From: Mobula hypostoma
Taxonomy: Eukaryota
Reading direction: 5' to 3'
Assembly: GCF_963921235.1 (NCBI RefSeq)
Contig: NC_086108.1
Coordinates: 28,646,001 to 28,710,000, forward strand
DNA length: 64,000 nt
A program made the translations under genes and the position numbers. Shown here one piece after another: positions 388 through 63,316 of this stretch. The notes beneath the pieces are model-generated. The model saw nothing but the letters and a program-made list of their open reading frames with translations, searched no databases and had not been told where the DNA came from. Numbering within the stretch: the stretch's first letter is position 1; each line of letters starts with the position of its first letter.

Positions 388-467
388 CTAATCGTTTCCT
401 CCTGGTAAAGACTGCTGACCACTGGACCACCAAATCGTACTTTCAGATCAGAGTCCTTCAGTAAATC
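388..467 (-). CDS. ACBD6: ACBD6 coding exon 4 (linker before ankyrin repeats; gene continues outside window)
   Basis: tttcag|GAT TTA CTG... = DLLKDSDLKVRFGGPVVSSLYQEETI(R); FGGPVxSSLY linker motif typical of ACBD6; 80 nt; donor AG|gtatgt. Confidence 0.92.
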
Positions 468-654: not shown

Positions 655-784
655 GACGAAGGGTCTCGGCCGAAACGTCAACTGTACCTCTTCCTAGAGA
701 TGCTGCCTGGCCTGCTGCGTTCACCAGCAACTTTGATGTGTGTTGCTTAAAATTCCAGCATCCGCAGATTTTCTCGTGTTTGCG
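655..784 (+). mobile_element. Short Penelope-like terminal insertion, starting inside the hammerhead core
   Basis: gacgaagggtctcggccgaaacgtc...ctcgtgtttgcg flanked by 10-bp TSD actttaacac (645-654, 785-794). Confidence 0.85.
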
Positions 785-4487: not shown

Positions 4488-4489
4488 TA

Positions 4490-4765: not shown

Positions 4766-4769
4766 CGGA

Positions 4770-5040
4770 TACAACCTTGGAGCAGTACTACTACAGCAGC
4801 ATGATGACACTTGGCAACCTGTGGTCTATAATCAAAGGCTTTAACAAGTACAGAAGCAAACTATGCACAGATAGAGAAAGAACTTCTTGCCAGCACATAG
4901 GCATGTCAAAGGTTCCACTAGTATAGCTTTGGACAAGCTACTGAAATCATAAACCGCTGGTCTAAATTATGTCCAGATCTCTGAATGACTGTCCCATGAG
5001 TATACAGCGCATGTTGATAAGGCTGTAGAAATATGATGTG
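4770..5040 (+). mobile_element. Ty3/Gypsy pol remnant (RNase H)
   Basis: LGAVLLQ...WQPVVY, then after a frameshift TEANYAQIEKELLA, HKPLV and IQRMLIRL; stops present. Confidence 0.8.
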
Positions 5041-6500
5041 AAGATAAGACCATAAGACCGAAAGACATAAGAGCAGAATTAGGCCATTTGGTCCTTCGAG
5101 TCTGCTCCACCATTTCATCATGGCTGATCCATTTTCCCTCTCAGCCCCTCTCCAGTGTCAGCAGATCCTTTCTAAGATAAGGGGTCTAAAACTGCTCACA
5201 TTACTCCAAGTGAGGCCGCACCAGTGCTTTATAAAGAATGCTAACATTGCACTTGCCTTCCTCATCACCAATTCAATGTGCAAATTAACCTTAATGAAAT
5301 CCTGCACAAGAACTCCCAAGTCATCAATTCCGTCATCTAAGTCATTAACACGTAACATTAACAGAAGCTCTCGCAACACAGACCCCTATGGAACACCACT
5401 AGTCACCAGCAGCCAACCAGAAAAGGCTCTCTTTGCCTCCTGTCCATCAGCCACCGCTCTATCCATGCTAGTATCTTTCCTGTAATACCATAGGCTCTTA
5501 ACTTGTTAAGCAGCCTCACGTCAAAAGCGTTCTGGAAATCCAAGTACCCAACATCCACCAATTCTCCTTTGTCCTGCTTATTTCTTCAAAGAATTCCAAC
5601 AGATTTGTCAGGCAAGATTTTCCCTTGAGGAAACCATGCTGACTATGGCCTATTTTATAATATGCCTCGAAGTACTTATTCAATTCATCCACCATTTCCT
5701 TGTCCCCCATTACTACCTCTCCAGCATCATTTTCCAGTGCTCCAATATCCACTCTTGCCTCACCTTCACTTATCTGAAGAAACTTTTGGTATCCTCTTTA
5801 ATATTATTGGCTAGCTTACTATCGTATTCCATCTTTTCCTTCTTAATGACTTCTTAGTTGCCTTCTGTTGATTTTTAAAAGCTTCCCAATCCTCTAACTT
5901 CCCACTAATTTTTGCTCTATTTTATGCCCTCTCTTTGGCTTTTATGTTGGCTTTGACTTCTCCTGTTCTCCTCAGTTGTGTCATCTTGCCTTTAGAATAC
6001 TTCTTCCTTCTGGGGATATATATATATCCTGTGCCTTCTGAATTGCTTCCAGAAATTCCAGCCTTTGCTGCTCTGCCATCAACCCTGCCAGTGATCTTTT
6101 CTAATCAATTCTGACCAACTCTTCTCTCATGCCTCTGTAATTCCCCTTACTCTATGTAATACCACTACATCTGACTTTAGCCTCCCTTCTCAAATTTCAG
6201 GATGAATTCAATTACATTATGATCATGTTTCCCTAAGGGTTCTTTTAACTTAAGCTCTCTAATCAATTCCTGATCACTGCACAGCACCCAATACGGAATA
6301 GCTGGTCCCCTCATGGGTTTAACCATGCTGCTCTAAAAAGCCTTCTCATAGGCATTCTAGAAATTCCCCCTCTTGGGATCCAGCACCAATTTTCTGATTT
6401 TCTCAATCTACCTGCATACTGAAATCCCGCATGACTATTGTATCATTGCCCTTTTGGCATGAATTTTCCATCTCCCATTGTAATTTGTAGACCACACCCT
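5041..6500 (-). mobile_element. CR1 LINE, internally deleted
   Basis: QHGFLKGKSCLTNLLEFFEE motif; CR1-type tail at 5041-5110. Confidence 0.85.
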
Positions 6501-6837
6501 GACAATCTTTTGCATCATCAATCAAATCAATAATCTGAATTTACAACTCATGCTAAAATAAACCACCAATCCCATCTCCTAACTTTTGAACACAATTCTC
6601 TCATATGGGACTTTATCAAAGATCTTCTGAAAATCCATATTCATCACATTCACAGGCTTCCTCTTTTTATTCTATGAGTTACAGGCTCAAAATATTCCAG
6701 TGGGCATGTCAAACACAGTTTCACTTTCATGAATCCATGATGACTTCGTTATAACATATTTTATAATAGATGCTGGCATTTTCCCTACCACTCATCGTAA
6801 GCTAACTGTTCTGCATTTGTCACCCTCCAATAAGAAG

Positions 6838-7120
6838 TCTTCTTCTTCGGCTATCCATCGATTTTCGATGTTGACTGAGGCCTGGGCAAGGTTGTATGGA
6901 AGGCCGGCAGTTGCCCATGCTGCATCCCCTCTCCACGCTACCAATGTTGTCCAGGGGAAGGGCACTAGGACCCATACAGCTTGGCATCGGTGTCGTCGCA
7001 GAGCAATGTGTGGTTAAATGCCTTGCTCAAGGACACAACCCGCTGCCTCAGCTGAGGCTAGAACTAGCGACCTTCAGATCACTAGACCGACGTCCTTAAC
7101 CACTTGGCCACGCGCCACAC
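6838..7120 (-). mobile_element. tRNA-derived SINE with CORE-like body and (GAA)n tail
   Basis: Minus strand: A box TGGCCAAGTGG, B-box-like GTTCTAGCC, then gtgtccttgagcaaggcatttaacc; ends gatagccgaagaagaaga. Confidence 0.85.
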
Positions 7121-7646
7121 ACAGTAATTGAAGTAATTGCCCTCTAATCTATTGAATTTTGATAGCTGTCAGCCAATACATCTATTAGTTACATAGCTGT
7201 TTATTTTACTATTTGGGGATAGCAGATTATCAGACCCTGGAGTTTCATTCATTCTAGTCCTATTAATTTATCCAACATAATGCTTTTATTGAATATTAAC
7301 ATCAGGTAATCCTGTGGATGCTAGAAATCTAAAATTTTAAATAAACAAAAATACTTGAAATACTCAGCAGGTCAGGCCATATTTATGGGAAACGTACTGA
7401 GTACTTCCAGCATATTTGTTTCTTGTTTTAGATTTCCAACATCTGTAGGCTTTTTTTAAATTCTGCTGCACAATTTCAGGAATAAACACATCAGCAATTA
7501 AAATTCAACTCCAGAAGCTGCTATCAGTGACTGTCTGCTGCTCCACAAGTTTGGAGTTTTAATTTTTTTATATGTCATATTTCTGACCCTAAGAATCTAT
7601 GAATCAATGCAGATGTTTATGAATTAGTGTAGCTTCAAAATGTCCT

Positions 7647-8197
7647 TAATGGCGAAAAGGTGTATTTTACAACATTGGAAGGAGATTAATGCCCCAACTA
7701 CATCTTTTGGTTTTCTCAGATGATACTATGTTTAAATTTGGAGAAAATCAGAAGTAATCTTTATGATACTTCAGTTAAATTTGAACAGACCTGGAGAACT
7801 TTTATTCAACATTTTCATTTAATGTAATTTTTTTTTCTCTTTGCCCATATTTACATTCTCTTCTTGCTTTTTAACTGTTTTCAATGGAGGTCGGGTTTGA
7901 GGACGTGATTGTTTTAAGTTGTTTAAGTCTCCTTGATACCTAGTTAGCCCATTGCTTTGCTTTGCTTTTTAGATTAGTTGCATGATGGGGTTTTTTTGGG
8001 GTTTTTCTTCTCTTTATTGATATGTATGGAAAATTAGTATACTATTATATTACCTTATTATTGTATATCTAAACTGCATTGTTTGTACTAACTTTTTTTG
8101 TATATTAATATCTCTTGTAAATTTATATTGCAACAGTATATTAGTGTCTACATGGTTTACCTTTTGTGTACTAATTCAATAAAAAGATTTAATAAGA
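7647..8197 (+). mobile_element. L1-clade LINE 3' end
   Basis: AKRCILQHWK...LEKIR...KFEQTWR, homologous to 46260-46420; AATAAA and A-rich tail; 10-bp TSD aaaatgtcct. Confidence 0.85.
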
Positions 8198-8879
8198 AAA
8201 ATGTCCTGAAAATAGTGCATACAAAGCAAAAATTGATTAAGATGGAAATATGAACCTAAAGCAGAAAATAACAAGAGGTACACAGCTGGTCAGTCAGCAC
8301 CTGTGGAGAAAAAAATGTTTCAAGTCCAAAACTTTACATCAGGCCTATTTTGATAAAAGCTCATTGATCTGAAAGGTTAACTCTGTTTCCCCTACCACAG
8401 ATACTACCTAAATCGGCAGATTTTATTGCATGAAATATTGTTAAACAATACTTCATTGACCTAGTTACTTCCAGTCGATTAACTAAACTCATCACGCTGA
8501 CCAACCACCATGCTGCAGATCAAATTCAACCACATAAACTGAGATACAATCATCTGTGCAATCATCATGTGAATAACAAGTGATCAAATAGAATCAAAGA
8601 GTGATACATTTGAATCCATACATGACTTTGCCTTGATATAACACTAAATTGCACACTCCCTTTCAAATCCACATAGAAAAGCTAGAAGGAAAGACAGTAT
8701 GTAAGCTAGCATCAGCTGGAAGGTTGTAGTCCCCTAAGAGGAAGAAATTAGAGCCAGAATCACAATATCTACATTCACCCTTCCTTATTCCAATGCCAAG
8801 TTCACTTGCCTGAGATAAGCATACTATATCCACACAGAAATGAGGGAAATACATGACAAAGAGATTGCTAGATCCACGC

Positions 8880-10588
8880 CTATGGCTTCCAGTTAATTGG
8901 GATACATCAAGACCAGCACATTTTGACCCAATTAAGTGGCTGCTCCAATTAGCCAAAGTTTCGTGGACATAGTTAAAAAGATATATAAAGACAAACTGAG
9001 TAACAAATTATGTACAGTCGGCCCTCCTTATCCGCGAGTTCCGCATGCGCGAATTCAACCAACCGTGAATCACGAAAACCCAGAAGTGCTCTTCCAGCAC
9101 TTGCTGTTCGAGCATATACAGACTTCTTTTTCTTGGCATTATTCCCTGAACAATGCAGTATAACAACTATTTTACATAGCATTTACATTGTATTAGGTAT
9201 TATAAGTAATCTAGAGATGATTTAAAGTATACGGGAGGATGTACGTAGGTTATCATGGATCAGGATCGAAAAAAAACGGAAATTCTCTTAATAAGTAAGT
9301 CGGAACAGGTACATCCGGTATTATTTAGCATCAGTTAGTCAAACGTTTGCCTTAGTATATAGTATCTATTTTACCTTTCTATGCATATAAAATATTTAAG
9401 AAACATATGTTTCAGTGCCAGGCTCGGGAATGGAAGTTCCCGAGTTTGATCCAGTGACAGAGTGCTACCAAGCACACTCTCCATCTGTGCCGAGTTGATT
9501 TGGAGGATCAAAAACCCAAAACCCCAGAACCCAATAATTAAACCACTGCATTGCTTAGTAATAATTGTAGCTCTAATCGGGGCAGGGCCTTTCTCACTCT
9601 ACCCTTTAAAATTGTTCCGATCATTGACCGACTGTAGCCTAACACTTTTCCAATGGCGTTTCACTTCTTTCCCATCGCTTTATTATTTCCACTTTATTTT
9701 CAATCATAATCGTGATTATTTTCGTGGACAGAAACACTGCGGATTCAGAGCTCCGCCGTTGGGTCCTAACATCCACCGCACTAAGACAGGTTAAATAAGG
9801 TCCGAGGTTCCGCTGGGTCCTAAGGTCCACTGCATTTAGCCAGGTTGAATAAGGGACTTGAGCATTCGCGTTGTTTGGTATCCGCGAGGGGTCCCGGAAC
9901 CAATCCCTCGCGGGTAAGGAGGGCTGACTGTATTTAAATGAAATACAGTATAAATTAGCACATTACCAATGGTATTACAATACGATAAAACTGGGCATTA
10001 GATGGAGGAGTTCCTGTGTATTAGATGGACAAGTTCATCCAGTATCCACTGCCATGTTCTTTTGACTGACTGTCAGTGAACAAAATCAGCACAGACACCT
10101 GGGCAGAGAATGGACTGCCTTAATACAATCCATTTAACAATTGCATCCTCCAAATCTTCACTGTAACATTCAAGTTGATTGTTGATACATTTATTCATAG
10201 TTCCTAACTTGTTGAACTAGTGAAATTGTTACAGTTTCACTCCCAGCCATTTCTGACATCTCCAAGCCAACATACTTGAAACTCCAATGAGCAAAACAGT
10301 TCCAAATTGTCTTACTGCTTACTTCTTGCCAACTATCAGTGCCAAAAGTTGCTGCTTTTGAACACAAACAGAAGCACGATGTGGTGTCTAACGGCCGTGC
10401 AAGAACACACCACAAGCGCTAGTCAGAACCTGTTCGGCAACAGTCTCCTATCAAATTAAGCAGCATAATGTCCCAAATAAGCAAAGGGAATCCCAGCTAT
10501 TTTTTCGATTAGATTTTGTTCTTTAAAAGTTGTCCCAAATAAGCAGCTACCCCAATTGACCAATGTCCCAATTAACTGGAATCCATTG
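8880..10588 (-). mobile_element. Non-autonomous Tigger/pogo-like DNA element, interrupted by a MER2-like element
   Basis: Terminal inverted repeats ttccagttaattggga / tcccaattaactggaatccattg followed by TA; TIWNCFAH transposase-like remnant; homologous to 57999-58941. Confidence 0.7.
9015..9930. mobile_element. MER2-like Tigger-derived MITE with internal insert
   Basis: TA|cagtcggccctccttatccgcga ... tcgcgggtaaggagggctgactg|TA TIRs; both arms resemble the recalled mammalian MER2 consensus. Confidence 0.85.
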
Positions 10589-17529: not shown

Positions 17530-18610
17530 ATATCAACAGAATTAGAAACAGGTTTAATATCAGTGGCATATTTCATGGAATTTGGTGTTTTGCGGCAGCA
17601 GTACATTGCAATACCTAATAATAAAAAAACTATAAATTACAGTAAGTATATAAAAAAAGAATTAAGTTAAATAAGTAATGCAAAAAGAGAAGAAAAAATT
17701 AATGAAGTAGTGCTCATGGACTCATTGTTCATTCAGAAATCTGATTTCGGTAGGAAGGAAGCTATTCCTGAAATGTTGAGCGTGTGTCTTCAATCTCCTA
17801 TACCTCCTTCTAATGCTAGCAATGAGAAGATGATGTTCTGGGTGATGGGGGTCTTTAATGATAGATGCTACCTTTTTGAAACATTGCCTTTTGAAGGAGT
17901 CCTCAATGCTGGGGAGGCTAGTGCCCAGGATGGAGCTGGCTGAGTTTACAACTTTCTGCATTTTTTTCTGATCCTGTGCAGTGTCCCCTCCATACCAGAT
18001 GGTGATGCAATCAATTAGAATACACCCCACAGTACATCTGTAGAATTTGTAAGTACCGAGTCTCATCAAACTCTGAATAAAATATAGCTATTGGCATTCC
18101 TTCTTTGTAATTACATCAGTATGTTGGGCCCAGGATAAACCCTCAGAGATGTTGACCCGGGAACTTGAAACTACTCACCCTTGAAATTGCTGATCCCTCA
18201 ATGAGGACTGACGTGCATTTCTTTGACTGACCTTTCCTAAAATCCACTATCAATTCCTTAGTCTCACTGACATTGGGTGCAAGGTTGTTGTTGTGACACC
18301 ACTCAACCAGTTGATCTAGCTTGCTCCTGTACACCCCTTCGTCACCATCAGACATTCTAAGAACGAGTGTTATGTCATCAGCAAATTTATAGATGGCTTT
18401 TGAGCTGCACCTAGGCACACAGTCGTGGGTGTAGAGTGTAGAGCAGTGAGATGCAGCAGTGCTGATTGTCAGCAGGGTGACGTTATTTCCGATCCGCACA
18501 GACTGTGGTGTCCCAGTGAAGAAGTAAAGAATCCAATTGCGGGGGGGGGGGGGGGGTGGTTACAGAGGCCCAGGTTTTGAAGCTAGTTGATTAGAACTGT
18601 GGGTATGACA
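17530..18610 (-). mobile_element. Rex1/Babar-type LINE fragment
   Basis: LYTHDC, YKFADD, KTKELIVDFRK-like, SIIKDPHHP and RFRNSF-like motifs. Confidence 0.85.
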
Positions 18611-23524: not shown

Positions 23525-24300
23525 TTATGATGATTATGATTATGAGGACATGCAGTCCCCTTTTATTGTCATTTAGTAATGCATGCATTAAGAAATGATA
23601 CAATGTTTTTCCAGAATGATATCATGAAAACACATGACAAACTGACTTAAAAACTAACAAAAACCACATAATTATAACATGTAACATACATCAAAGTTGC
23701 TGGTGAACGCAGCAGGCCAGGCAGCATCTATAGGAACCAACAACTTTGATGTATGTTGCTTGAATTTCCAGCATCTGCAGAATTCCTGTTGTTTGCGTTT
23801 AATTATAACATGTAGTTACAACAGTGAAAAGCAATACCGTAATTTGATAAGAACAGACCATGGCACAGTAAAAATCTCAAAGTCTCTTGAAAGTCCCATC
23901 ATCTCACGCAGACAGTAAACCTCTAGCGCTGCCAACTTGCCAATGCAACATCCCGGAAGCATCCAAACACAGTCTGACTCCAAGTCCGTCCAAAAACTCT
24001 GAGCCTCCGACCACCTCTTCGACACCAAGCACCATCTCTGCCGAGCGCTTCGACCCTGGTCCCGGCAACAGGCGATAGGCAAAGCCGAGGATTTGGGGCC
24101 TTCGACTCCAAGAGATTCTCGATCGCACAGTAGCAGCGGCAGCGAAGCAGGCATTTCAGAAGTTTCTCCAGATGTTCCTCTGCGCTCCTCACGGCTGTCT
24201 CCATCAAATCCGGATTGTGCACGGCCCCCTAGTTACACATAATCGATATTCATTCGGAACGGCCACGCGCACTGCGTTGCGCTGCCATCTTCTCCTCCCT
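23525..24300 (-). mobile_element. Non-coding retroposed element with GC-rich head and (ATAATC)n tail
   Basis: Minus-strand start ggaggagaagatggcagcgc; many CpGs kept; ends aataaaagggga...cataatcataatcatcata; no RT motifs. Confidence 0.6.
23684..23799 (+). mobile_element. Short fold-back PLE insertion
   Basis: Inverted 5' arm plus 3' end ...gttgtttgcg; 15-bp TSD taattataacatgta. Confidence 0.85.
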
Positions 24301-26005
24301 CCTTCCTATAATGCATATTCCTCTCATTTGTAAGTCAGCCTCTGTGCAAGTACATACACAAGCCCCATTGTCAATGTGCAGATCATCTACTGTAGCTGAT
24401 ATGATCTTGGGTCTGGAATGGTATGGAATAGGTTGAATAATTTGTCATTACACTTATAGATTGTCTCCACTCCAGTGAGAAAGTTGTTAGAGATAAAGTG
24501 CCACATTGCAATAAGGAAGAGTGAAAAGAGTATTAAAGTGATGACACAGTGTTGCTTGACATCAGTCTACACTGAGATTGGAACCATTGTAGATTAATTG
24601 GTTAGGATAACACTTCGCATGCCATTGTGAAGCAAATGGAAAATTGAGACCTGTGGGCAAGTAGATTTGAAGAAGATGCTCCACTGAGCCTCTCAAATGA
24701 TGGAGTCAAAGGCTCTAGTTGAGATCAAAACATTCTATGCATAATGATTGATCCTGCTTCCTGCACTTTTTCCTGGAGTTGTTGTAAAGGGATTTCATGT
24801 TCACTGTGACTTTACATGGAAGGATTTTTCACTTCAATTTGAGGAGCAGTTCTTCAGCCAAAAAGGAGGGTGCTATTGAAGAAGTTCCACATGGCAACTT
24901 CCCCAGTGGCAGACAATGTGGAAAATTATCTATGGACACCACAGTTATATCTGTCTTCTTTCTTGGATGATTATGACCACCTCTAAGATTTGCTAGCATG
25001 TCCTTTTCCTCCTACAAACAAGAATTAAAGCTGTGAATTTGCAGCAGAATTTCTCCACCAATAGTCTTTTGAACTTCCGCAAGGACACTGTCTGCTTCAG
25101 AGACCTAGTTGTTTTTCACTGGCAACAGGGTCTTTTCAATACGGTCTGTCAAGTGGCAATGATGCTGAACTGGATAGTTTTCTGTGAAACGGAATCAAAG
25201 TTATTTACATCAAAGACTGTGACAGTTGTGAATATCTGTGAAATGTTCCTTCCAATCAACACAGACTGCCACACCGGGTTGGCCAAACGGCCTTTGCAGT
25301 GCTAAAGATTCCATGCATTTCATGGTCAGCAGCAAGTTGCTGTATCTTTAATACTCTTTCTGCTCATCATCTGCTCTTTAAAACATTCATGCTTTTATGG
25401 ACCTCAACCTTCAGATGTTTGTTGGTGCTCTTTCTTTTGTAGCATGATGGAGCTTCTAGTCATATCAAAAGCTTACACTTGAAGTTGATTACCTCCTGAT
25501 TTGTATTCATTATTCACATCAGACCAAACATTGTTCTTTCTCAAGTGGGGAAGCCATTGTAAATACTAATCAGAGGCTTATGGCCACTTACAGCTTCAGT
25601 TAATTGGCAGTAATGCAGTCGGTGAGGCACTCTCTAAGAACAGCTGCCTTTCTAGATTCCTTGAGACCTTCAACAATTTCTTGCATTAAAACATTTTTGA
25701 AGCTGTTGTGTACATAATCAATGCCCATCTTAGAATGACATCAGATGCAACTCTTAAAGCTGCAAAATACTTCCTTCCACTTCCAGCCCGCGCCCCCCCC
25801 CCGCCCAGTCTGGTCTCAACAGTTCAGTCCACTAAATGCAATCTCATAACATGTCAAACAAGAAGGATGTTAGAACCGGTGTTTCTTCTTCCTCTCACAG
25901 AGTACTAGTTTGTTAAACCAAATTATCAACCCATTCTTTCTCACACAATCTTCCTAACAGCAGATAAGTGAAAGAATATAGAAAATCCTATGCTTCATTG
26001 TACAA

Positions 26006-26089
26006 GCAACACACATCAACTTTGCTGCGTTCACCAGCAACTTTGATGTGTGTTGCTTGAATTTCCAGCATCTGCAGAATTCCTGTTGT
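26006..26089 (+). mobile_element. Short fold-back PLE insertion
   Basis: 13-bp TSD cttcattgtacaa; gcaacacacatcaa inverted against ttgatgtgtgttgc. Confidence 0.85.
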
Positions 26090-31269: not shown

Positions 31270-34200
31270 GGTGCTGGGACATAGCAGTCTTGTCGCACTC
31301 TTGTTACTCTGACCTGGAACATCTAATGATTATGCACCAACCGTACCACTTACCAAGAGAGTTCTCATCCGCAATCCTGACTGCAGTTACCAAAGACCAA
31401 TGTTAAGCAAGTACTCGAGGTACTGAATGCAACAATTAGCAAACAAGAAACAGGCTACCCCGACACCTTTCAAATCATTGTTGGGGACTTCAGTCAGGCT
31501 TGTTTGAAGAAATCTATGCCCAATTGTCATCAACATATCACCTGCAGCACCAAGGGTCCCAACAGACTTGACCACTGTTACACTACTTTTAGGAATGCCT
31601 GCCATTCCATCCTAGACCGCATTTTGGGAATTCTGACCATCTGGCTGACCTACTACCTGCCTACAGGCAGAGGCTAATGAGCAAGACTCTAGAGATAGGG
31701 ACAACAAAGAACTGGTCATGAAAGGCAGAGGAACAGCTATTGGATTGCATCGAGTTGGTGGACTGGGATCTGTTCAAGGACTCAGAGGATCTGAACAAAT
31801 AGGACATAGTTGTCACGGACTTTATAATAACAGTCGTGGATGAGTGTGACCCCACAAAATCATTCAGTCTTCCACAATCAGAAGCACTGGATGTACCAAG
31901 AGATCCGTAATCTGCTCAGGGCCACATCGGTGGCTTTCAGGTCTGGCAACCAAGTAAAATACAAGCAATCCAGGTACGACTTTCGGTACATAATGTCACT
32001 TGCGAAATGGTAATTCTGGACCAAACTTGAATCACTGAAGGATGCTCAGCATCTGTGGCAGGGCTTGATGTTATCACCTCCAACAAAGTGAAGCCAAGTG
32101 ACATACGTGATGACAAGATTTCACTCCCAGATGAGCTCAATTCTGTTTATGTGTTCACGCGGAGGGGTGTGGGAGTTCATCTTTGTAAACTTTCATGGCT
32201 AGCAATGATCCTCTGATTTCAGTCTCTGGGGCCAACATGAGACCCACGGAGAGCATCCGGCACAGACAGGGTACCCGGCTGAATACCGAGGACCTGGGCT
32301 GTTCAACTGGCTGGAGTGTTCCCTGATACCTTTACCCTCTCTCTTTGCCAGTCTGAGGTATCCACCTGCTTCAAGCAAGTTTCAATTGTACTGGTACCTA
32401 AGGAGAACATGGTGACCTGCCTCAATGACTAGTGTCCATTAGCACTTACATCCACTGTGATGAAGTGCTTTGAGAATCAACTCCTATCTGAGAAGCAACT
32501 GCAATTGACTCCAATTTTCCTACTGTCGCAACAAGGTCAACAGCTGATGCCATTTCATTGGCTCTTCACTCAACCCTGGAACATATGAACAGCAAAGATG
32601 CATACATCAGGATGCTCTTCGCTGACTGCAGCTCAGCATTCAATACTATCATCCTGTCAAAGCTAATCAAATCAATAAGCTCCAAGACCTAGGCCTCAAT
32701 ACTTCCTTGTACAACTGGATCCTTGCAGACCCTGGTCAGTTTGGATTGGCAACAATATCTCCTCCACAATCTCCATCAGCACAGATGCACAAGGCTGTCT
32801 GCTTAGTCTCTTGCTGTACTTGCTTTATACTGTGAGGCTAAGCACAGCTCCAATGTTATATTTAAGCTTACAGATGATACCACTGTCACTGGACAAATCA
32901 AAGGTGGTGACGAATCAGCATATACTGTAAGAGAGAGATTAAAAATCTGGTGCAATGTCCACAAACTCTCAATGTCAGCAAGACCAATGAGCAGAATATT
33001 GACTTCAGGAGAAAACTGGAGGTCCATGAGCCAGTCCTCATCAGGGAATCAGAGGTGGAAAGGAACTGTCTGTCTGTCTAGGTACCATATCTGATGCGGA
33101 ATTTGGTGACCATGGTTTTCCATATAGATCTATCCTTCATTTTTTGGATAACTTCCATTTCCTCGATGTGTAGCCACCTGGCTATGCTTTTGATGTACAT
33201 AAGCCAAGGTCTTTCTCTAGGTTTACTCACAATCTTTCCAGAGAGTATAAGTTTTTCTGTTCATCTTTCCGCATGATGTGCCCTAGGAATCCGAGATGGC
33301 TTTCTCTTATTGTTGGCATGAGTGATCGAACTGCTTGGGCTCTTCTGAGAACTTCTTCATTTGATGTGTGTGTGATCCATGATATTTTTAACATCCTCCT
33401 GCAGAACCATAATTCAGCTGCTTCTAGTCTCTTTTCCATTGCTGGAGAAATGGTCCAGCATTCACTTCCATAAGTCAGGATAGAATAAATGTAGCACTGC
33501 AGTATTCTGCTTTCAGTGTACGTGCTCATCTTTCTGTCTGTTAATATAGTCTTCATTTTTTGGAAAGCTTCTTTCGCCGTTGCTATTCTCTATTTGATGT
33601 CTGTGCCGCACCTGCCATTACTTATTAGGCTGCCAAGATATCTGAATTTGTTGACTTGTTTAATGTTTGTATTTCTGATCTTGATCACACATTGTGGGAT
33701 GTTTGTCTTTCTGGAGATGACCATGCTTTCTGTCTTCTTGGTGTTGATTGAGAGGCCTCTACGATTACTTTCTGCTGCCACGATAGAGAGTAGTTCTTGA
33801 AGTTTTGTTTCTGAGTCATCTATTAGTACAATGTCATCAGCATATCTGATGTTATTTATATTATGGCCTCCAATTGTGAACCCTTTGATGTCTTTGATAC
33901 CTCTCAAGATATTTTCACTATACAAGTTGAATAAGTCTGGCGAAAAGACACAACCTTGCCTGACTCCTCTCATGATATTCACATACTCACTCACTTCTCC
34001 TTCTATTCTGATGGATTCTGTCTGGTCCCAGTATAAGTTTCTTAAGAAACGTATATCTTTCCCATCTATGTCAAGATCTTGAAGCATTTCCAGAAGATGG
34101 ACAGTGTCAAAAGCTTTTGTATAGTCAATGAAACATAGGTAGATGTCTTTTTGTACCTGGAACAGCAACTTTAGATTCCTGTGTTATCATTTCAGAGAAC

Positions 34201-36951: not shown

Positions 36952-39449
36952 ACACACACAAAATGCTGGAGGAACTCAGCAGGTCAGGCAGCATCTACAG
37001 AAATGAATAAACAGTTGACATTTCAGGCTGAGACCCTTCATCAGGACTGGAAAGAAGGGAGGAAGGGGGGGGAACATTGAGGGGGAGGGAGCGTTGACTC
37101 AGACCATGAGAGTCCCGTGTCGGGCATTTTCTTGCCTTACAAGGGGCAGGGGGAGGAAGACTTCAAAATAAAAAGGTTGAGGGAGGGGAAGGAGGACAGC
37201 TAGAAGGTGATAGGTGAAGCCAGGTGGGTGGAAAAGGGTAAAGAACTAGAGAAGGAATCTGATAAGAGAGGAGAGTGGACCCTGGGACAAAGGGAAGGAG
37301 GGGCACCAGGGTGACATATTAGACAGGTATGGAGAAGAAGTAACAGGCCAGAGTGCGGAATAGAAAAAGAGGGAAGAGGGAGGAAGGAAAAATCAATGCT
37401 AGAAGGGAGTGGAGGCTACCTTGACATAATATGAGGTGTTGCTCCTCCACCCTGGAGTTGGTCTCATCATGGCACAAGAGGAGGCCATGGACCAACATGT
37501 TGGAATAGGAATGGGGATAGGAATTAAAAGGTTTGGCCACCAGGAAATCCACTTTTGGCAGATGGAGTTGAGGTGCTCGACAAAGCAGTCCCCCGAATTT
37601 ATGTGGGGTCTTACCAATGTACAGGAGGCTGCACCAGGAGCACTGGATACAATAGACAATGTCAACAGATTCACAGCTGAAGCCTATCTCATCTGGAAGA
37701 ACTACTTAGGGCCCTGAATGGAGGTAAAGGAGAAAAATGGGCAGATGTAGCATTTCTGTCACTTGCAGGGATATGTGCCACAAATGGACAAAGAAATCAT
37801 AGAGCGAGCAATCCCTGCGGAAAGAGAAGGATGGGGTGGGGGGAGGTAAAGATGTGTTTGGTCATATATATCCCCATTGAAGATGGCAGAAGTTGCAGAG
37901 AATGATGAGCTGGTTGTGGAGGCTCATGGGGTAGTAGGCAAGCACAAGAGGAACCCTATCCCTCTTAAGGCAGCAGGAAGTTGGGATGAAAGCAGACATC
38001 TGGGAAATGGAGGAGATAAAGGTGAAGGCAGCATTACTGGTAGAAGTAGTGAAATCCCATTCTTTGAAGAAGTAGAACATCTGTGACATCCTAGCAAAGA
38101 AAATCTCTTCCTGTGACCAGATGCAGCAGTGAAGGAGGAATTGAGAAAAGGGAATTACATTTTTACAGGAGATAGGGTAGGAAGAGGTATAGTCAAGATC
38201 ATTGGTTGGTTTATAAAGGATATCAGAAAATAGTTTGTCTCCAAAGATGGAGACAGAGAGATCAAGAAAGGGGAGAGAGGTGCCAGAAACAGATGAAGTG
38301 AATTTAAGGGCAGGGTGAAAGTTGGAGGCAAAGTTTATGAAATTACAAGCTCAGCATGGGTGTATGAAGCAGCACCAATGTAGTCGTCAATGAAGCCCAG
38401 TAGGAGCATTACCAGGGAAGGCTTGGAACATAGACTGTTCTATGTAGCCAGTGAAACCTACACAGGTGTCCATGGCCACCCTTTGAGTTTGAAGGAAGTT
38501 AGAGAAGCCAAAAGAGAAATTGTTGAGGCTGAGGACCAGTTCTGCTAGACAGAAGAGGGTGGTGATGGAATGGATCTGGTTGGGTGTTTTGTCAGGAAAG
38601 ATGTGGAGAGCTTTAAGGCCTCTTTGATGGGGGATGGAAATATATAGGGACAGAGTATCCATGATGAAAATGAGGCGGTCAGGGCCTGGGAATTGAAAGT
38701 TATTGAGGAGTCAACCGCAAGTGAAGTATTGTGATGTAGGTGGGAAGGGAGTGAACCAAGGGGAGTAGAATCAAGTCGAGCTATGCGGACATGAGTTCAG
38801 TGGGGCAAGAGCAGGCAGAGATAATGGGCATACCAGAAATTCATGTTTGTGGATCTTGGGTGGTAGGTAGAAACAAGCAGTGCGGGGTTAGGGAACCATG
38901 AGTTTGGTGGCGATGGATGGGATATCTCTACAGTTGATGAGATTAGTGATGGTGTCAGAGACCATTTTCTGATGATCCAGACTGAGTGGGGTCCTTTTCA
39001 AGGGGAAAGTAAGAGGTATCTGAGAGTTGTCGCCTGGCCTCAGCAAGGTAATGATCAGTTTGGCACACTACAACACAGCGGGTTTGATGGTAAGATTGCA
39101 GTTGGTGCAGAGAGGGTGGAGGGCAGTGCATTCAGAGGCGGTAAGCTTCGAGGAGAAGGGAGGAGTACTGAAGTTGAGCCGGTTGATGTCTCGTCAGCAA
39201 TTAGAAATGAAAAGACCGAGAGCAGGCAGAGTACCAGGGTGGGTGTCCAAGAGGAGGAGGAGAGTTGGAGACAGAGGAAGGGGTCATTAGTTCAGGGTGG
39301 GGAATTCTTACCAAAGAAGTGGATTTGGAGACAGAGGCAACAGAAGAAAAGCTCGGAACTCACCAAGGTGTGGGAGAATGGAGACAAAGGCAAGACTGTA
39401 GCTTTGGACAAAACATTCCACCTCAGAGAGGGGAAGGTCGGAAGGACGT
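36952..39449 (-). mobile_element. Penelope-like element (RT plus GIY-YIG remnants, pseudo-LTR with hammerhead motif)
   Basis: MDTLSLYISIPH..LAELVLSLNNFSF..VAM (PLE RT), DRVPLVLAY, and IVYCIQCSWCSLLYIGKT (GIY-YIG, about 37610-37665). Confidence 0.9.
37012..37049 (-). ncRNA. Minimal type I hammerhead ribozyme motif (PLE)
   Basis: cagtc-CUGAUGA-agggucucagccu-GAAA-ug-UC-aacug; core intact, stem I and stem III carry CpG-type changes. Confidence 0.7.
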
Positions 39450-40141: not shown

Positions 40142-43100
40142 AGTTAAGGACTGCCCTTATTGTTCTGGCTGAGTACTTATTTAGTGGACTGGGTTAGCAT
40201 GAAGGTGCTAAGTATATTTGGAATAATTGTTCCATGCTGGACTCGTCTGCCAAAAATAAAAGCAAACTAAACATGCTTGCCTACTATTTGAGGCAGAGAT
40301 TTCATCCCAACATTTCAGATTAGAATCAAACCTACAATTCACATACAATGCCCACCTACTAGTCTTCCACGTTTAAGCTTTATATTTTTGTTTCAAAATC
40401 AGCCAAAGTGCTGAACTACTAGCTTCACTATACTGTTGTTATTTTCTCTCTTCTTGCAACATATCATCTCCTAGCATTTCAGGTGCAAAATATAAACTGC
40501 TTGTTGGAAGAACTCAGTGGGTCATGCAACATTGGTAGAGGTAAAGAGATGGTCGATGTTTCAGTTGAAGACCACCCCTTTGCCTCCACAGATGCTACTA
40601 GATCTGCTGAGTTCTTCCAGCAATTTGCTTTTGTGATCAGAATCCAACATCTGCAGTCTCTTGCGTCTTCTAGGAAAATCCTAAATCATTTTAGAATGAT
40701 CTAGGGCAACCAGGTTCAATATCCCACTTCCACTAAAAAAGTAACAAAAGAACAGCCATGAAAATCTACTATTCAGCAACAACAAAGTCCTAAGATTATC
40801 ATAATTTTACTACATTTGAGATGCTTACAGTAAAAATGATTCCAAAGCTTTCCTGCACTGTCATATGCATTAGGATCAACTGAGAAGGAAATGGAGAGAA
40901 GTGGTGCAAGAAGAACCCACACTACATTAATTTCACTAATGTGATACAACAGTGACACCTCATGGAGGAGACGATTAGCCACATGTACAATCTAGTGAAG
41001 TACTAACCTGACTATAATGAAAGATGAAGTCTCTGAGGTAAGATTACTCATGTCAGTTAGAATGATGGAATATAAAATACTGAATTCCACTTCCAGCAAA
41101 AATCAATTTGGGTTATCTGCTACCACTGTATATTTAACTATAATACATGTTTTGCCACTGACTATTTAGCTAAAACATTTGTAGATTTGGCATGGGGATA
41201 CAGCAAAACTTAACTACACTGGCAAGTAGTGGTTTACTGAGATGTACAAGCTCATCTGTTAAAAGAACATTTCAACACTAGAACATTACTTTGCTCTATT
41301 GGAAAAGTAAACCAAACTTATTTATCATTACTTATTCTTAATGGATAAATCTTAAATTAAAAAAAACAAGCACATGGTGAGGTTAGTTGTTTAAAGTAAA
41401 CTCAGAATACTCCTGAAAGCAATAAAAAAAAAACTTTGTTTCCATCATTCAACAATTCATCATTCCAATGACAATAATAATCACAATATATGTAATAAAT
41501 AAATGGATCCACTGCAAAAAAAAAAGCAAGAAACAGTAGCATCTTAATGTCGATGATACTGAGCACTTGTTTCATTGTTGGTTGTAACTTGCCTCATTTA
41601 ATTAAATGAATATACCAAAACTAACACAACAGCATGCATTCATTAACAAAATGTGCATGGGACTATACAGAGGGTAGGATTATCTAAAGTATTATTAAAG
41701 GATTATCATGCAGTAGTCAATAAACTATGTAGTCTATCAAAATGCTATAACTTTCACTATATTTAGCCCTTGAAAATTGTAATTGGTTTATTAATGTCAC
41801 AAGTACTTAGGATTGCAGAAAAGCTTGTCTTGCATACTGAACATAAAAATCAGATCATTACACGATGTATTGAGGTAGAACAATGCAGAATAATTAAGTA
41901 AGTGCAATTACGAAGAAAGCATGGAAGTGCCTCTAGTTCCTTAGGAGTTTGCAGACTTGACATGACATCTAAAACTTTGTCGAACTTCCATTGATTATGT
42001 TGTGGTTATCATTCTGTGGATTTATTGAGTAGGTCCACAAGGAAATGAATCTCAGAACTGTATATGGTGACATATATTTACTTTGATAATAAATTTACTA
42101 TGAACTGAATAATGTGTAACAGTACAAAGAAACTACAGTGCAGGTAAACAATAAGCTTTAACAGCATAATGAAGTGGATTGTGACATCAAAAGTCCATCT
42201 TGTCAAACTTATAAAAGGAGGGTAAAAGCTATTCCTGAGCCCAGTACGTACATGCTCTCAAGCTTTTAGATCTTCTGGCCAATAGAAGAATGGAGAGAAT
42301 GTCCAGGTTACATGGTGTCTTTGATTGTGCTGGCTGCTTTACTGAGGCAGCAAGAACTATTGATGTATCCATAGAGGGGTTAGTTTCCATGATGTGCTGA
42401 GCTGTGTCCACAACTCCGCAGCTTCTTGTAGTAATGTGCAGAATAGTTGCCATACCTAACTGTTATTCATCCAGATAGGATGTTTCTTAGAATTCAGAGA
42501 TTCAAAATGATTCCAAAGGAACTAAAGGAGAGATGAGAATAAATCCTTCACATGGTAGGCTGTTATGAAATACACTACCTGACAGTGTAGAGAAACTGAT
42601 GTGACTGAAACTTGGAAGATAATTGGAACGTACATGAAAAGCTGGTCATCATTCCACATCATAGGATATGCCAGCACTCTTAAAAAATTAGCTAAAACAT
42701 TGTACAACTGTTATATTCTCCAAAGAAGCAAACAAACTATTTGCATCTTTCAGGATATCAAATGGTATTTGATAATGTTTACCAAAATGCCATGGGCTTT
42801 TTTCTTGTCATAATGGGTGCTACATAAGATATTAAGCGTAGATGCTTATTCTTTTCACAGGTTCATCTTCAATATCTTTGAAGACAAATAACTGGAAAAC
42901 AAAATAATTCATTTCACAAGGGAAGTCCAAATTACTTTCAGATAGTGATAATAAAATTAGGAATGCACTACACTTGCCCAATTGAATTGATTATTTGTAA
43001 ACTATGGAAAACATCAGCTGAGATTATCAAACATCATTCTGAAGACTTATTGCATCAGTACCTTTTAAACCTCAACAAACGAGGTTGAGAGGCATCAAAG

Positions 43101-43239
43101 GGAAGGGTGGGATCAAATTATGCACATTAAAAAGTAGAATAATTACAAAGAAAAGGGAATTCCATATGAAGAAATGCAATGAATAATAATATGGAGTTTC
43201 CTCCGAACCATCAACTTGGAGATGCAAGGGATTCTGCTT

Positions 43240-43730
43240 AACTGGATCACTGGTTAATCTGGACAGCCTTTTTTTTTGGGACAACTGTTAAACAACAAAA
43301 ACTAATCCAGAAAATTGCTGGTATTCCCTTTGTTTATTTGGGACACTATGCCACTTAATTGGGACAGAAGACTGTTGCGGAGCAGTTTCTAACTAATGTC
43401 AGTCATGTACACGTGCATGGTTGTTAGATATTACGCAAACAACAGGAATTCTGCAGATGCTGGAAATTCAAGCAACACACATCAAAGTTGCTGGTGAACG
43501 CAGCAGGCCAAGCAGCATCTGTAGGAAGAGGTGCAGTCGACGTTTCAGGCCGAGACCCTTTGTCAGGACTAACTTCAGTTTATACTACTGTAGACATATT
43601 GATAGCTCTAATTTGTTGTGTATTTCATTTAAATTCATAATTTATTACTCAGTTAAATAGTAGTTCATCTTTTTAATTGCGCCAAAATGCACTGGTGCTG
43701 ATGTGTCCTAATTAACCAGAATCCACTGTA
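43240..43730. mobile_element. Partial copy of the Tigger-like element (as 8880 and 57999) with nested PLE piece
   Basis: tatttgggacactatgccacttaattgggac internal motif; ends tgtcctaattaaccagaatccactg|ta. Confidence 0.7.
43434..43574 (-). mobile_element. Short PLE terminal insertion containing a full hammerhead motif (43535-43570)
   Basis: Minus strand: aguc-CUGACAA-agggucucggccu-GAAA-cg-UC-gacu; perfect 4-bp stem I; G-to-A change in CUGANGA. Confidence 0.8.
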
Positions 43731-43761
43731 TTTAATCTTGCTTTTCTCCATGTAATATTAC

Positions 43762-43858
43762 CTTAGTCTTCCATTCTGGGTCTAATTCCTTTACAGCTGT
43801 AACATATTCCTCCATAGCCTGTTGTGCAGTCATATCACCCATCTCCTTCCATGCTTCC
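43762..43858 (-). CDS. ACBD6: ACBD6 coding exon 3
   Basis: ctgacag|G GAA GCA TGG... = (W)EAWKEMGDMTAQQAMEEYVTAVKELDPEWKTK; 97 nt; donor AAG|gtaata; completes the ACB domain (KWEAW...AMEEY). Confidence 0.95.
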
Positions 43859-44772: not shown

Positions 44773-44837
44773 CATTTCTGTCTGCCTTCAAAGTCAAAGA
44801 ATCCAGGCTTTGGAATATTGCATTTTCCAAATTTGGC
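44773..44837 (-). CDS. ACBD6: ACBD6 coding exon 2
   Basis: ttctgttttctag|GCC AAA TTT GGA AAA TGC... = AKFGKCNIPKPGFFDFEGRQK(W); 65 nt; donor TG|gtaggt; phases fit exons 1 and 3. Confidence 0.95.
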
Positions 44838-48349: not shown

Positions 48350-49325
48350 GGTTCTCAGAATATATATATATATATAAAATTTATATCCCATTTTTATATA
48401 TAAAAAATAAGCAGCACAAAAATAGACCAAGAAAAGAAAAAAAATATACTGAAGTACTGTTCCTAAGATGTGTGTGTATCTTCAGGCCCCTGTACCTCCT
48501 CCTTCAGATCAGCAATGAAAAGAGGGCATATCCTGCCTGACGGGGATCCTTAATGATGGATGCAGCCTTTTAGAGGCATCGCCTTTTGAAGGTGTCCTCA
48601 ATGCTAGGGAGGCTAGTGCCCAGATGGAGCTGGCTGAGTTTGCAACTTTCTGCAGCTTTTACCAATCCTGCACAGTATTCCCCCCGCCCCAAAACACCAG
48701 TTGCTGAACCACCAGTTAGAATGCTCTCCACGGTACATCTGTAGAAATTTGTATGTTTTTGGTAACATACCAAGATTTCTCAAACTCCTAATAAAATGTA
48801 GCCACTGTTGTACCTTCTGTGTAATTGCATCAATATGTTGGGCCCAGGTTAGTTCTTCAGAGATGTTGACACCCAGGAATTTGAAACTGCTCACCCTTTC
48901 CAATGCTGATCCCTGAATGAGGACTGGTATGTGTTCCCTCGGCATCCTCTTCCTGAAGTCCATAGTCAATTCCTTGGTCTTACTGATGTGGACTGCAAGG
49001 TTGTAGTTGTGATACCACTCAACCAGCTGATCTACCTCCCTCCTGAACGCCTCCTCGTCACCATCCAAAATTCTGTCGACAATAATGGTGTCTTCGGCAA
49101 ATTTATAGATGGTGTTTGAGCTGTGCCTACCCACACAATCGTGAGTGTAGAGGGAGTACAGCAGTGGGCTGAGCACACATCCTTGAGGTGCACAAGTTTT
49201 GGTTGTCAGTGAGGAGGAGATGTTATTTCTGATCCATACTGTGGTCTCCCACTGAGGCAGACAAGGATCCAGTAGCAGAGGGAGCTACACAGGCCTAGGT
49301 TTTGAAGCTTGTTGATAAGTACTGA
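48350..49325 (-). mobile_element. Rex1/Babar-type LINE fragment
   Basis: LSPLLYSLYTHDC, KTKELTMDFRK and FKFLGVNISEELTW motifs. Confidence 0.9.
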
Positions 49326-56363: not shown

Positions 56364-57142
56364 TCACAGAAACATAGAAAATGTACAGCACAATACAGGC
56401 CCTTCAGCCCACAAAGTTGTGTCGAACATGTCCCTACCTTAGAAATTACTAGGCTTACCCATAGCCCTCTATTTTTCTAAGCTCCGTGTAACTATCCAGA
56501 AGTCTCTTAAAAGGCCCTATCGTATCTGCCTTCACCACCGTTGCCGGCAGCCCATTCCACGCACTCAACACTCGCTGCGTAAAAAACTTACCCCTGACAT
56601 CTCCTCTGTACCTACTCCACAGCACCTTAAACCTGTGTCCTCTTGTGGCAACCATTTCAGCCCTGGGAAAATGCCTCTGACTATCCACATGATCAATGCC
56701 TCTCATCATCTTATATACCTCCATCAGGTCACCTCTCATCTTCCGTCGCTCCAAGGAGAAAAGGCTGAGTTCACTCAACCTATTCTCATAAGGCATGCTC
56801 CCCAATCCAGGCAACATCCTTGTAAATCTCCTCTGCACCCTTTCTATGGCTTTCACATCCTTCCTGTAGTGAGGCGACCAGAACTGAGCACAGTACTCCA
56901 AGTGGAGTCTGACCAGGGTCCTATATAGCTGCAACATTACCTCTCGGCTCCTAATTTCAATTCCACGATTGATGAAAGCCAATACACCATATGCCTTCTT
57001 AACCACAGTCAACCTGCACAGCAGCTTTGAGTGTCCTATGGACTCGGACCCCAAGATCCCTCTGATCCTCCACACTGCCAAGAGTCTTACCATTAGTACT
57101 ATATTCTGCCATCATATTTGACCTACCAAAATGAACCACTTC
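56364..57142 (-). mobile_element. CR1 LINE 3' fragment nested in the Buster transposase
   Basis: 212-aa ORF2 C-terminus (HLEYCAQFWSPHYRKD); splits the FWISVK|EEFP junction of the transposase. Confidence 0.93.
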
Positions 57143-57998: not shown

Positions 57999-58941
57999 CA
58001 GTAGATTCCGGTTAATTGATCCATCGCTTATTTGGGATAATTCTTAAAGTACAAAAACAAATCGGGGAAATATCCAAGATTCCCATCATTTATTTGGGAC
58101 AAATTGCTGCTTAATTGAGGCAGGAGATAAGTGCTGAACATTCTCTATACTAGCAATCAGTCGCTTGCACATCATATGACTCCTAGATACCATGTACAGA
58201 GCAAACAGTTTTTAAATAGTGTCACATGTGTTTGTGTTCAAAAAAAGTGATTTTTGACACTCATAGTAGGCAAATAATAAGCAGTAAGAGAATTCAAAAC
58301 TATATTGCTCACTGTAGTTTCAAGTATTCAGGCTTGGAGATGCCAGAAATAGCCGGAAATAAAAATGAAACAATTTCACTACTTCAACAAGCTAAAAACT
58401 ACAAAGAATTTGAAGGTATCGACAATCATCTTGAATATTTCAATTAAAATGAAGATTGGAGCTTGCATCATCAAAAGCACTGTTTGAGAGCAGCCCACTA
58501 ACCGTACTGGGTATCTGCGCTGATTTTATTCATTTACAAACAGAAGAACACCTCAGCGTTCACTGAATGAATTCCTCTGTCAATAACTATTAGGAACTAC
58601 GATATGTCGACTGTACTTCTTCCTATAAATGCTGCCTGGCCTGCTGCGTTCACCAGCATTTTTTGTGTGTGTTGCTTTAATTTCCAGCATCTGCAGATTT
58701 CCTCGTGTTTGCGATTAGGAACTAAAACACAGTTTTATAGTACCCTAGTAGTTTTGGTAGTGTTCTAATTTATTGTGTATTTCACTTAAATACATAATTT
58801 GTTACTCAGTTAAATGATAGTTCACTTTTTTTTTTAATACCTTTTTAACTACTTTCATGAAGACTCAGCTAACTGGAGCAGCCACTTAATTGAGCCAAAA
58901 TGTTCTGGCCCCAATGTGTCCCAATTAACTGCAATCTATTG
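57999..58941 (+). mobile_element. Non-autonomous Tigger/pogo-like element
   Basis: TA|cagtagattccggttaattg ... caattaactgcaatctattg TIRs; homologous to 8880-10588. Confidence 0.75.
58600..58713 (+). mobile_element. Short PLE terminal insertion
   Basis: 11-bp TSD attaggaacta; starts at a decayed cgaaacgtcgact and ends ctcgtgtttgcg. Confidence 0.85.
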
Positions 58942-59751
58942 TGTTCCCAAATTAAATAGCAAGCATGCTCTGCCTAAGACCTTTAAGGGGAAAAAGGGCT
59001 CATTAAATTAGTGGAGTTCTCTTTAACACTCTCATTAGTTAGAAGATGATATCTGTATTTGGTACTTGGAGCCAATTTCCATCTACTCTTATTTTTAACA
59101 AGCAATAAAGCTGTTAATTGTGTTTAAATGCATTAACGCCACTACAAAAAAATTGCACTTAAAAATCCACTTTTTAAGTTATTGCGCATGCAGAAACTTT
59201 AGTGTAAGAAGGAACATGCAGAGCAACTTGAACCTAACTGATCAAAACCTTGCATTGGTGACAAATGCATCTGCACTCCTCAGCACTACCCTGTAAAACT
59301 GTCAACTTCTGAATTCTGCACACGTTCAAAAATGTGAACTCACTTTCCATGACATATTGCCCTTCCAGTGTGCTATCCCAATCTTTACAGATGCACTCAG
59401 TGCCAAACAGATGAACTAATTTAAACTGCAACATTTGTTACTCAATTCTCACTATAAATTCCAAGTAAGAAGTCGCTTGTGTTCATTTAACGTTTAAATT
59501 ATATGTTAAGCCTGAACAACCGCAGACTGTTTTCAACTACGTACATACTTGTTTTCACAGATCACTTTATAATGAATCAACTTTAAATCTAAAAGGTGTC
59601 AAACATTTATTTAGTACTTCAGTTTCCACCTGAAGTTTATGTTCCAATCAGTAGGGATTCTCAAGGGGTAATCCCTATTCACATTTGTCATGGCCGAGGA
59701 TTGATCCCCACTCACACCCATTCTGGTCACAGGTAATCCAAATTCACACTT

Positions 59752-59943
59752 AAAAGTTGCTGGTGAACGCAGCAGGCCAGGCAGCATCTCTAGGAAGAGG
59801 TATAGTCGACGTCAGGAGGAAGGGTCTCGGCCCGAAACGTCAACTGTGCCTCTTCCTAGAGATGCTGCCTAGCCTGCTGTGTTCACCAGCAACTTTTATG
59901 TGTTGCTTGAAATTCCAGCATCTGGAGATTTCCTTGTGTTTGT
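59752..59943 (+). mobile_element. Fold-back PLE insertion
   Basis: 13-bp TSD caaattcacactt; about 60-bp inverted arms around a partial hammerhead. Confidence 0.88.
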
Positions 59944-60399: not shown

Positions 60400-60588
60400 C
60401 TGTTTGAACCTGCTGTATAGGTAGAGCAGCTTTTCTCGGTTCACCACGTGTGCGAGCTTGATCACGTGCTCGGCCGCTTCCTCGAACTCAGCGCGCAGCG
60501 CGCTCCCGTCCTCCTCCTCCTCTTCTTCCTCTGGCTCTCCCACGGCCACGCGCGGCCGCTCCTCACTAACACTGCCCGCCGCCGCCAT
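60400..60588 (-). CDS. ACBD6: ACBD6 coding exon 1 (acidic N-terminus and start of acyl-CoA-binding domain)
   Basis: MAAAGSVSEERP...EFEEAAEHV...REKLLYLYSRFKQ, with the ACB-domain LYxxxKQ motif; 189 nt, ends at CAG|GTAAAG donor; GC/CpG-rich context. Confidence 0.95.
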
Positions 60589-61977: not shown

Positions 61978-62036
61978 AGCAACACACATAAAAGTTGCTG
62001 GTGAACGCAGCAGGCCAGGCAGTATCTCTAGGAAGA
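61978..62036 (-). mobile_element. PLE terminal fragment joined to CR1
   Basis: agcaacacacataaaagttgctggtgaacgcagcaggccaggcag, same family as 655-784. Confidence 0.75.
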
Positions 62037-63316
62037 CCCTATCGTTTCCGTCTCCACCACCGCCGCTGGCAGCCCATTCCACGCACTCACCACTCTGTAT
62101 AAAAAAAATTTACCCCTGACATCTCCTCTGTACCTACTTCCAAGCACCTTAAAAATATGCCTTTTCGTGCTAGCCACTTCAACCCTGGGAAAAAGCCACT
62201 GACTATCCACAGGATCAATGCCTCTCATTACCTTGTAGACCTCTATCAGGTCACCTCTCATCCTCCGTCGCTCCAAGGGGAAAAGGCCAAGTTCACTCAA
62301 CCTATTCTCATAAGGCATGCTCCCCAATCCAGGCAACATCCTTGTAAATCTCATCTGCATCCTTTCTATGGTTTCCACGCCCTTCCTGTAGTGAGGCGAC
62401 CAGAATTGAGCACAGTACTCCAAGTGGGGTCTGACCAGGGTCCTATATAGCTGTAACATTAACTCTCGAATCTTAAACTCAATCCCACGGTTGATGAAGG
62501 CCACACACGCCTTCTTAACCACAGAGTCAACCTGTGTAGCAGCTTTGAGTGTCTTATGGACTCGGACCCCAAGATCCCTCTGATCCTCCACACTGCCAAG
62601 AGTCTTGCCATTAATGCTATATTCTGCCATTATATTTGCCTTACCAAAATGAACCACCTCACACTGAATGGGTTGAATTCCATCTGTAACTTCTCAGCCC
62701 AGTATTGCATCCTATTAATGTCTCACTGTAACCTCTGACAGCTCTCCACACTACCCACAACACCCCCAACCTTTGTGTCATTAGCAAATTTACTAACACA
62801 TCCCTCCACTTCCTCATCCAGGTCATTTATAAAAATCACAAAGAGAAGGGGTCTCAGAACAGACCCCTGAGGCACACCACTGGTGACCGACCTCCATGCA
62901 AAATATGACCCATCTACAACCACTCTTTGCCTTCTGTGGGCAAGCCAGTTCTGGATCCACAAAGCAATGTCCCCTTGGATCCCATGCCTCCTTACTTTCT
63001 CAATAAGCCTCGCATGGGATACCTTATCAAATGCCTTGCTAAAATCCATATACACTACATCTAAGGCTCTACCTTCATCAATGTGTTTAGTCACATCCTC
63101 AAAAAATTCAATCAGGCTCGTAAGGCACAACCTGCCTTTGACAAAGCCATGCTGACTATTCCTAATCATATTATGCCTGTCATAATCTTCATAAATGTTC
63201 ATAAATCCTGCCTCTCAGGATCTTCTCCATCAACATACCAACCACTGAAGTAAGAATCACTGGTCTATAATTTCCTGGGCTATCCCTACTCCCTTTCTTG
63301 AATAAGGAAACAACAT
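62037..63316 (-). mobile_element. CR1 LINE RT fragment
   Basis: SQHGFVKGR, YMDFSKAFDKV, SGVPQGSVL, FINDLD, SKFANDTK. Confidence 0.95.

Follow-up and report, generated by a model that had tools for sequence, protein, structure and literature searches.

A predicted inert minimal hammerhead in a Penelope-like tail stub within intron 3 of an acyl-CoA-binding-domain gene of Mobula hypostoma

Minimal hammerhead ribozymes have been described in the pLTRs of metazoan Penelope-like elements (PLEs; Cervera and de la Pena 2014, PMC4209133). They have no real helix III, a palindromic 15.2-16.2, an unpaired base between positions 9 and 10.1, and a helix I of 4-5 bp, and they are dispersed as thousands of single truncated copies. 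In that work, cleavage was not seen with single units and was slight with dimers. Among vertebrate PLEs, the Poseidon element PAc of the lizard Anolis carolinensis, whose pLTR contains a minimal hammerhead, is known from biochemistry (Frangieh et al. 2024, PMC11167929). Cleavage by this hammerhead requires the element's protein, and insertion in vitro proceeds without the hammerhead. Activity is abolished by G8C, the mutation tested there, which is not G8A. No RNA-seq reads were reported to end at its cut site. Neptune-type EN+ PLEs (Craig et al. 2021, PMC8557442) are described with a reverse transcriptase (RT) followed by a CX2-5CxxC linker and GIY-YIG, and with heavy 5' truncation and inverted 5' copies. 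Animal non-LTR retrozymes (PMC7229834; bioRxiv 10.64898/2026.07.22.740005) carry a type I hammerhead in each of their tandem units, within dispersed pLTR-related repeats. The preprint samples one chondrichthyan and reports that tandem retrozymes are under-represented in Xenopus introns. Conserved intronic hammerheads are present in amniotes (cited in PMC7229834). A literature search on Penelope hammerheads in elasmobranch genomes found none, which is not proof that the family described below is unpublished.

The window analyzed here is a stretch of 64,000 nucleotides from Mobula hypostoma. Its minus strand at 43570-43535 reads AGUC-CUGACAA-AGGGUCUCGGCCU-GAAA-CG-UC-GACU (Table 1). A relaxed core pattern is matched once across the window, whereas 100 shuffles averaged 0.01 matches. 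The minus-strand letters and the shuffle test bear out an earlier sequence-only reading of this DNA, which had placed a hammerhead here in sense orientation. The type I minimal anatomy proposed in that reading also stands. Its 4-bp stem I has to be extended by a fifth pair, U-G, and an unpaired A just precedes stem II, which is arranged as GGGU-CUCG-GCCU. In active hammerheads G8 is the partner of C3; in the window copy it is replaced by A at 43561. An Rfam scan of the window returned no hammerhead model at E up to 10. Such a miss is expected with helix III missing, and it was not weighed against the motif. A second palindrome, GUCGAC (43541-43536), straddles the cut site; pairing between molecules is predicted to be stronger through it than through ACGU.

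The surrounding gene is, judged by its translation, a minus-strand gene with an acyl-CoA-binding (ACBP) domain, the Pfam matches of exons 1 and 3 being weak. By likeness it is probably ACBD6. Exon borders were set by sequence and translation. The placement of exons 1, 2, and 4 makes 43762..43858 exon 3 and the motif sense. Exon 3 ends at 43762 and is followed by GT at 43761-43760. The motif is 191 nt inside intron 3, which is about 43.3 kb long.

Table 1. Positions of the motif, the stub, related repeats, and the host-gene exons in the 64,000-nt window.
Feature	Position	Strand	Basis or remark
Minimal type I hammerhead motif with G8A	43535..43570	-	mutated base 43561
Motif stem I	43570-43567 with 43538-43535	-	
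Motif core	43566-43560	-	
Motif unpaired A ahead of stem II	43559	-	
Motif stem II	43558-43555 with 43550-43547	-	
Motif GAAA	43546-43543	-	
Motif CG	43542-43541	-	
Motif UC	43540-43539	-	
Predicted cut of motif	between 43539 and 43538	-	
Whole insertion: 142-bp, 5'-truncated pLTR tail of young Penelope-like element	43433..43574	-	alignments to sisters
Older dispersed repeat interrupted by the stub	43225..43735 (approximate ends)	.	related copies near 10420-10588 and 58028-58945
Older, decayed Penelope-like element in which the RT-like and GIY-YIG-like frames are broken	36952..38710	-	68% identity over 1,047 nt to L052 element
Antisense stub of same family, cut inside core	655..784	+	10-nt target-site duplication
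Inverted stub pair of same family, intron 1, joined at hammerhead	59745..59942	.	13-nt target-site duplication
Host gene exon 1, coding part	60400..60588	-	Pfam PF00887 E 1e-3 and translation
Host gene exon 2, 65 nt	44773..44837	-	translation and splice signals
Host gene exon 3, 97 nt	43762..43858	-	PF00887 E 5e-5, under the curated cut-off
Host gene exon 4, 80 nt	388..467	-	translation and splice signals

The motif lies at one end of a short insertion. At 43574, 121 alignments begin, and most of them stop at 43433-43438. The identity of 98-100% to dispersed sisters indicates that the stub is young. Over 75 nt, its single difference from the closest intact sister is the catalytic base. No target-site duplication was seen adjoining 43433..43574. 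The repeat interrupted by the stub (43225-43735) has terminal inverted repeats by eye and is possibly a non-autonomous DNA transposon; its middle part is absent at this site in comparison with loci L055 and L089.

Genome searches supplied 60 sister loci (48 distinct seed segments). The length of shared sequence upstream of the motif varies between 0 and about 1.4 kb, which points to 5' truncation. The longest copies (L052, L047) translate into RT-like frames, then a C-x4-C-x2-C linker, and then a GIY-YIG-like frame. Each protein test alone is weak: Pfam gave no RT match on the RT-like frames and a match at E 0.023 on the GIY-YIG-like frame, and the atlas neighbors of the element's protein were HTH_animal and RVT_1 proteins (0.93-0.94). 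A PDB search gave one match, rejected as chance. The order of RT, linker, GIY-YIG, and terminal repeat with hammerhead fits the described PLE layout and supports the assignment of the stub family to the PLEs. These frames, the 5' ends of the sisters, and the inverted partners support the Penelope origin suggested earlier. The linker motif alone would place the element in a clade of Neptune/Nematis type. The CX2-5CxxC linker between RT and EN is present in the L052 translation, and the family shares with Neptune-type EN+ PLEs this domain order, the heavy 5' truncation, and the inverted 5' copies. PAc, in contrast, belongs to the Penelope/Poseidon clade. Both it and the family described here are vertebrate PLEs with a minimal hammerhead in the pLTR, and both leave genomic copies that end at the tail with the motif uncut.

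An inverted partner lies within 1.5 kb of 116 of the 241 whole-motif copies in the intronic sample described below. Inverted pairs occur at 59745-59942, 23683-23798, and 26003-26089 in the window and among loci L061-L232, and several are joined inside the hammerhead. Inverted pairs would make long hairpins in pre-mRNA. Clustering of 5' ends around the outer edge of stem I is possible: 13 of 82 young copies begin within -4 to +2 and 7 in the 26 nt upstream, in a sample biased by the choice of loci for carrying the motif and by ungapped extension that halts at indels. The start of the window copy, at -4, falls on an AG that in longer copies follows a pyrimidine run, an arrangement resembling a splice acceptor.

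The core C3-U4-G5-A6-N7-G8-A9, G12-A13-A14-A15.1, U16.1-H17 is kept at the family level. The intact 35-mer with U11.1 has 35,718 exact copies genome-wide (3.48 Gb) and the intact 31-mer with C11.1 has 7,424, while control patterns gave 0. Among 188 older copies, the majority share at non-CpG core positions is 0.89 compared with 0.68 for the next 14 nt. The unpaired nucleotide between 9 and 10.1 is A in 233 of 246 whole-motif copies. The window copy, like 43 of 53 young copies, has CG as the palindromic 15.2-16.2 that replaces helix III; the rest of the young copies mostly show CpG decay. Folding in a 211-nt context gives helices I and II pair probabilities of 0.50-0.62. Compatible changes are one-sided, U-G/U-A in helix II (172/43) and U-G/C-G at the fifth pair of helix I (75/74).

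In every feature compared except the G10.1-C11.1 pair, the motif family is, on its sequence, the minimal hammerhead of metazoan PLEs. It shares with the published examples the pLTR location, the lack of a real helix III, the palindromic 15.2-16.2, the unpaired base between 9 and 10.1, the length of helix I, and the dispersal as thousands of single truncated copies. Relative to PMC4209133, helix II is 4 bp here and 7-8 bp in the Schistosoma examples. There are more than 43,000 exact intact copies (two forms) here versus 4,000-9,000 in coelacanth and Xenopus, and the window copy carries G8A. The 10.1-11.1 pair, given as a highly conserved G-C in that paper, is a G-U wobble in the window copy (base 43547) and in 38 of 53 young copies, and remains G-C in the sub-lineage counted by the 31-mer. 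A private CpG decay of the window copy to U11.1 was considered and rejected: U11.1 is the majority state, about five to one over C11.1 genome-wide. This frequency is far above the 4-7% decay rate, and G10.1-U11.1 was thus inherited from the source element of the dominant young lineage. The inherited pair offers a cheap natural test of the role of ribozyme strength in Penelope copying. One could suppose that the most-amplified lineage traded G10.1-C11.1 for the wobble and so tuned its ribozyme down, and that intact sense stubs are tolerated while silent until the element's protein activates them. We regard this as very improbable. If true, Penelope expression would trigger transcriptome-wide cutting of pre-mRNA.

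The exact G8A 35-mer of the window copy occurs 1,555 times genome-wide, which is 4.4% of the intact count. For the G-to-A change at the loop II CpG, a control chosen as catalytically neutral, the count is 2,337 (6.5%), so that G8A is the rarer change. The genome-wide G8A count covers the CA form and shows no G8A excess. In 228 intronic copies (those left of the 241 whole motifs once 13 junction artefacts were taken out), G8A accompanies C at position 7 in 18 of 94 cases and T in 3 of 101 (p 0.0003). By strand, it is carried by 7 of the 48 sense copies and 11 of the 48 antisense ones. It is found on several sequence backgrounds. A source element already carrying G8A was rejected, the change being present in 4 of the first 100 copies listed from the window copy's own sub-lineage (14,703). 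The dependence on CpG and the lack of a sense bias favor decay over selection, the two origins left side by side in the sequence-only reading, and G8A is likely CpG decay. The same reading held this copy to be probably silenced by the change, which we retain.

Selection would mean that sense hammerheads cut host pre-mRNA and that G8A was favored here because of the closeness to exon 3. It would account for a sense copy near an exon that differs from its closest intact sister over 75 nt in the catalytic base alone. The CpG at the G8 site in 53 young copies also leans this way, with CA in 10 and TG in 2 (two other fully CpG sites give about 5 and 4). However, G8A is rarer genome-wide than the neutral loop change and no commoner among sense copies. 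The idea that the family seeds harmful sites, purged from the sense strand, leads to the same question, and the depletion test proposed with the sequence-only reading was carried out in 1.78 Mb from six genes: five glypican-family genes found by Pfam search (1.72 Mb between exons) and the 60 kb host gene. There were 398 profile matches. Exclusion of 14 from an 80-kb flank with unclear gene content left 384, of which 241 cover the motif from end to end.

Whole motifs number 124 sense and 117 antisense, and intact cores 48 sense and 40 antisense (p 0.46; 95% interval of the sense share 0.44-0.65). The balance is similar with all stems paired (25 sense, 19 antisense) and for copies that have no inverted partner (26 sense, 21 antisense). 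Exact intact 35-mers are found 13 times in sense and 7 times in antisense, that is, 20 seen against 18.3 expected from the genome density (11.2 per Mb in the sample, 10.3 genome-wide). No purge of intact sense cores was found across the six genes and 1.78 Mb, in a test that excludes only depletion stronger than about 1.3-fold, with 45% of the DNA from one gene and mostly from deep intron that may include nested antisense genes. The purging claim is thus not supported. Same-strand pairs with core bases kept, 3 in sense and 2 in antisense, give selection no support either. For deep introns selection is largely refuted, and for G8A in the window copy we consider it extremely unlikely. A vertebrate genome can hold about 10 exact intact minimal hammerheads per Mb of intron and show no visible bias between the strands, in keeping with the view that minimal hammerheads do not cut alone.

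The window copy is a lone stub without a stable stem III or a close partner. The nearest same-strand hammerhead, 6.5 kb away in the same intron, is that of the decayed element at 36952..38710 (RT and GIY-YIG part at 37410-38710). This sense hammerhead, 37048-37013, keeps its core bases; its stem I and palindrome are damaged, with changes at 15.2, in loop II, and at 1.1. Three features make the window copy most likely inert: G8A, the absence of helix III, and the absence of a near partner. The monomer is predicted to fold as a non-hammerhead hairpin (-8.3 kcal/mol for the window copy, -11.0 kcal/mol for an intact sister), with stems I and II alone at -7.0 kcal/mol. The predicted dimer pairs through GUCGAC (-7.5 kcal/mol) and not ACGU (-1.7 kcal/mol), in a folding program that cannot model the active dimer. 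These folds, together with the lack of strand bias, argue against intronic stubs as latent sites, in which intact members would be silent alone and would cut pre-mRNA in trans upon expression of the element's protein or RNA, the window copy being a member that escaped. The protein dependence of the lizard hammerhead (PMC11167929) speaks for such sites, as do the kept ACGU palindrome and more than 35,000 identical potential partners. We give them very little credence.

We are highly confident that 43433..43574 is a 142-bp sense stub of a PLE tail in intron 3, that its G8A change is likely CpG decay, and that the stub is, by prediction, catalytically dead and of no consequence for the host gene. 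In the proposed course of events, the element's RT would start at the pLTR tail of an RNA with an uncut 3' hammerhead, copy about 140 nt, and stop 4 nt beyond stem I. The stub would then integrate into the older repeat, and a methylated CpG would later mutate on the opposite strand to give G8A. The stub spans the cut site and a further 105 nt into the tail, from which we infer that the template RNA was uncut at the hammerhead. In the active element, the likely task of the hammerhead is to process the RNA of the element itself, either as a dimer or assisted by the element's protein. The window copy, a single mutated member of a population of tens of thousands of stubs, is itself of little importance.

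The amniote intronic hammerheads invite the thought of a co-opted intronic ribozyme, and the non-LTR retrozymes, with their type I hammerheads in dispersed pLTR-related repeats, that of an independent retrozyme. The former would be unique and old with an intact fold; the window copy is young and nearly identical to its dispersed sisters, with 1,555 identical 35-mers and a broken core. A retrozyme would have complete hammerheads in tandem, whereas the locus is a single truncated unit, the 142-bp end of a protein-coding element, with no tandem array. It has no canonical stem I or III. The probability of either origin is close to nil.

Three other copies in the window had been cited for the family consensus, those at 655, 37012, and 59820. 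The consensus pieced together from them was right, although none of the three is intact on its own: the 655 copy begins after the CU of the core, the 59820 copy begins at the inversion junction, and the copy at 37012 is the damaged hammerhead of the decayed element. At 40507-40617, two old copies of the same tail family form an inverted pair that yields a weak Rfam match, 'Plastid-psbJ-4', which was rejected as chance. Decayed LINE reverse-transcriptase fragments are present at 3572-4072, 17722-18559, 33227-34183, 48613-49284, 56443-57111, and 62028-63214; by their motifs they look CR1-, RTE-, and L2-like.
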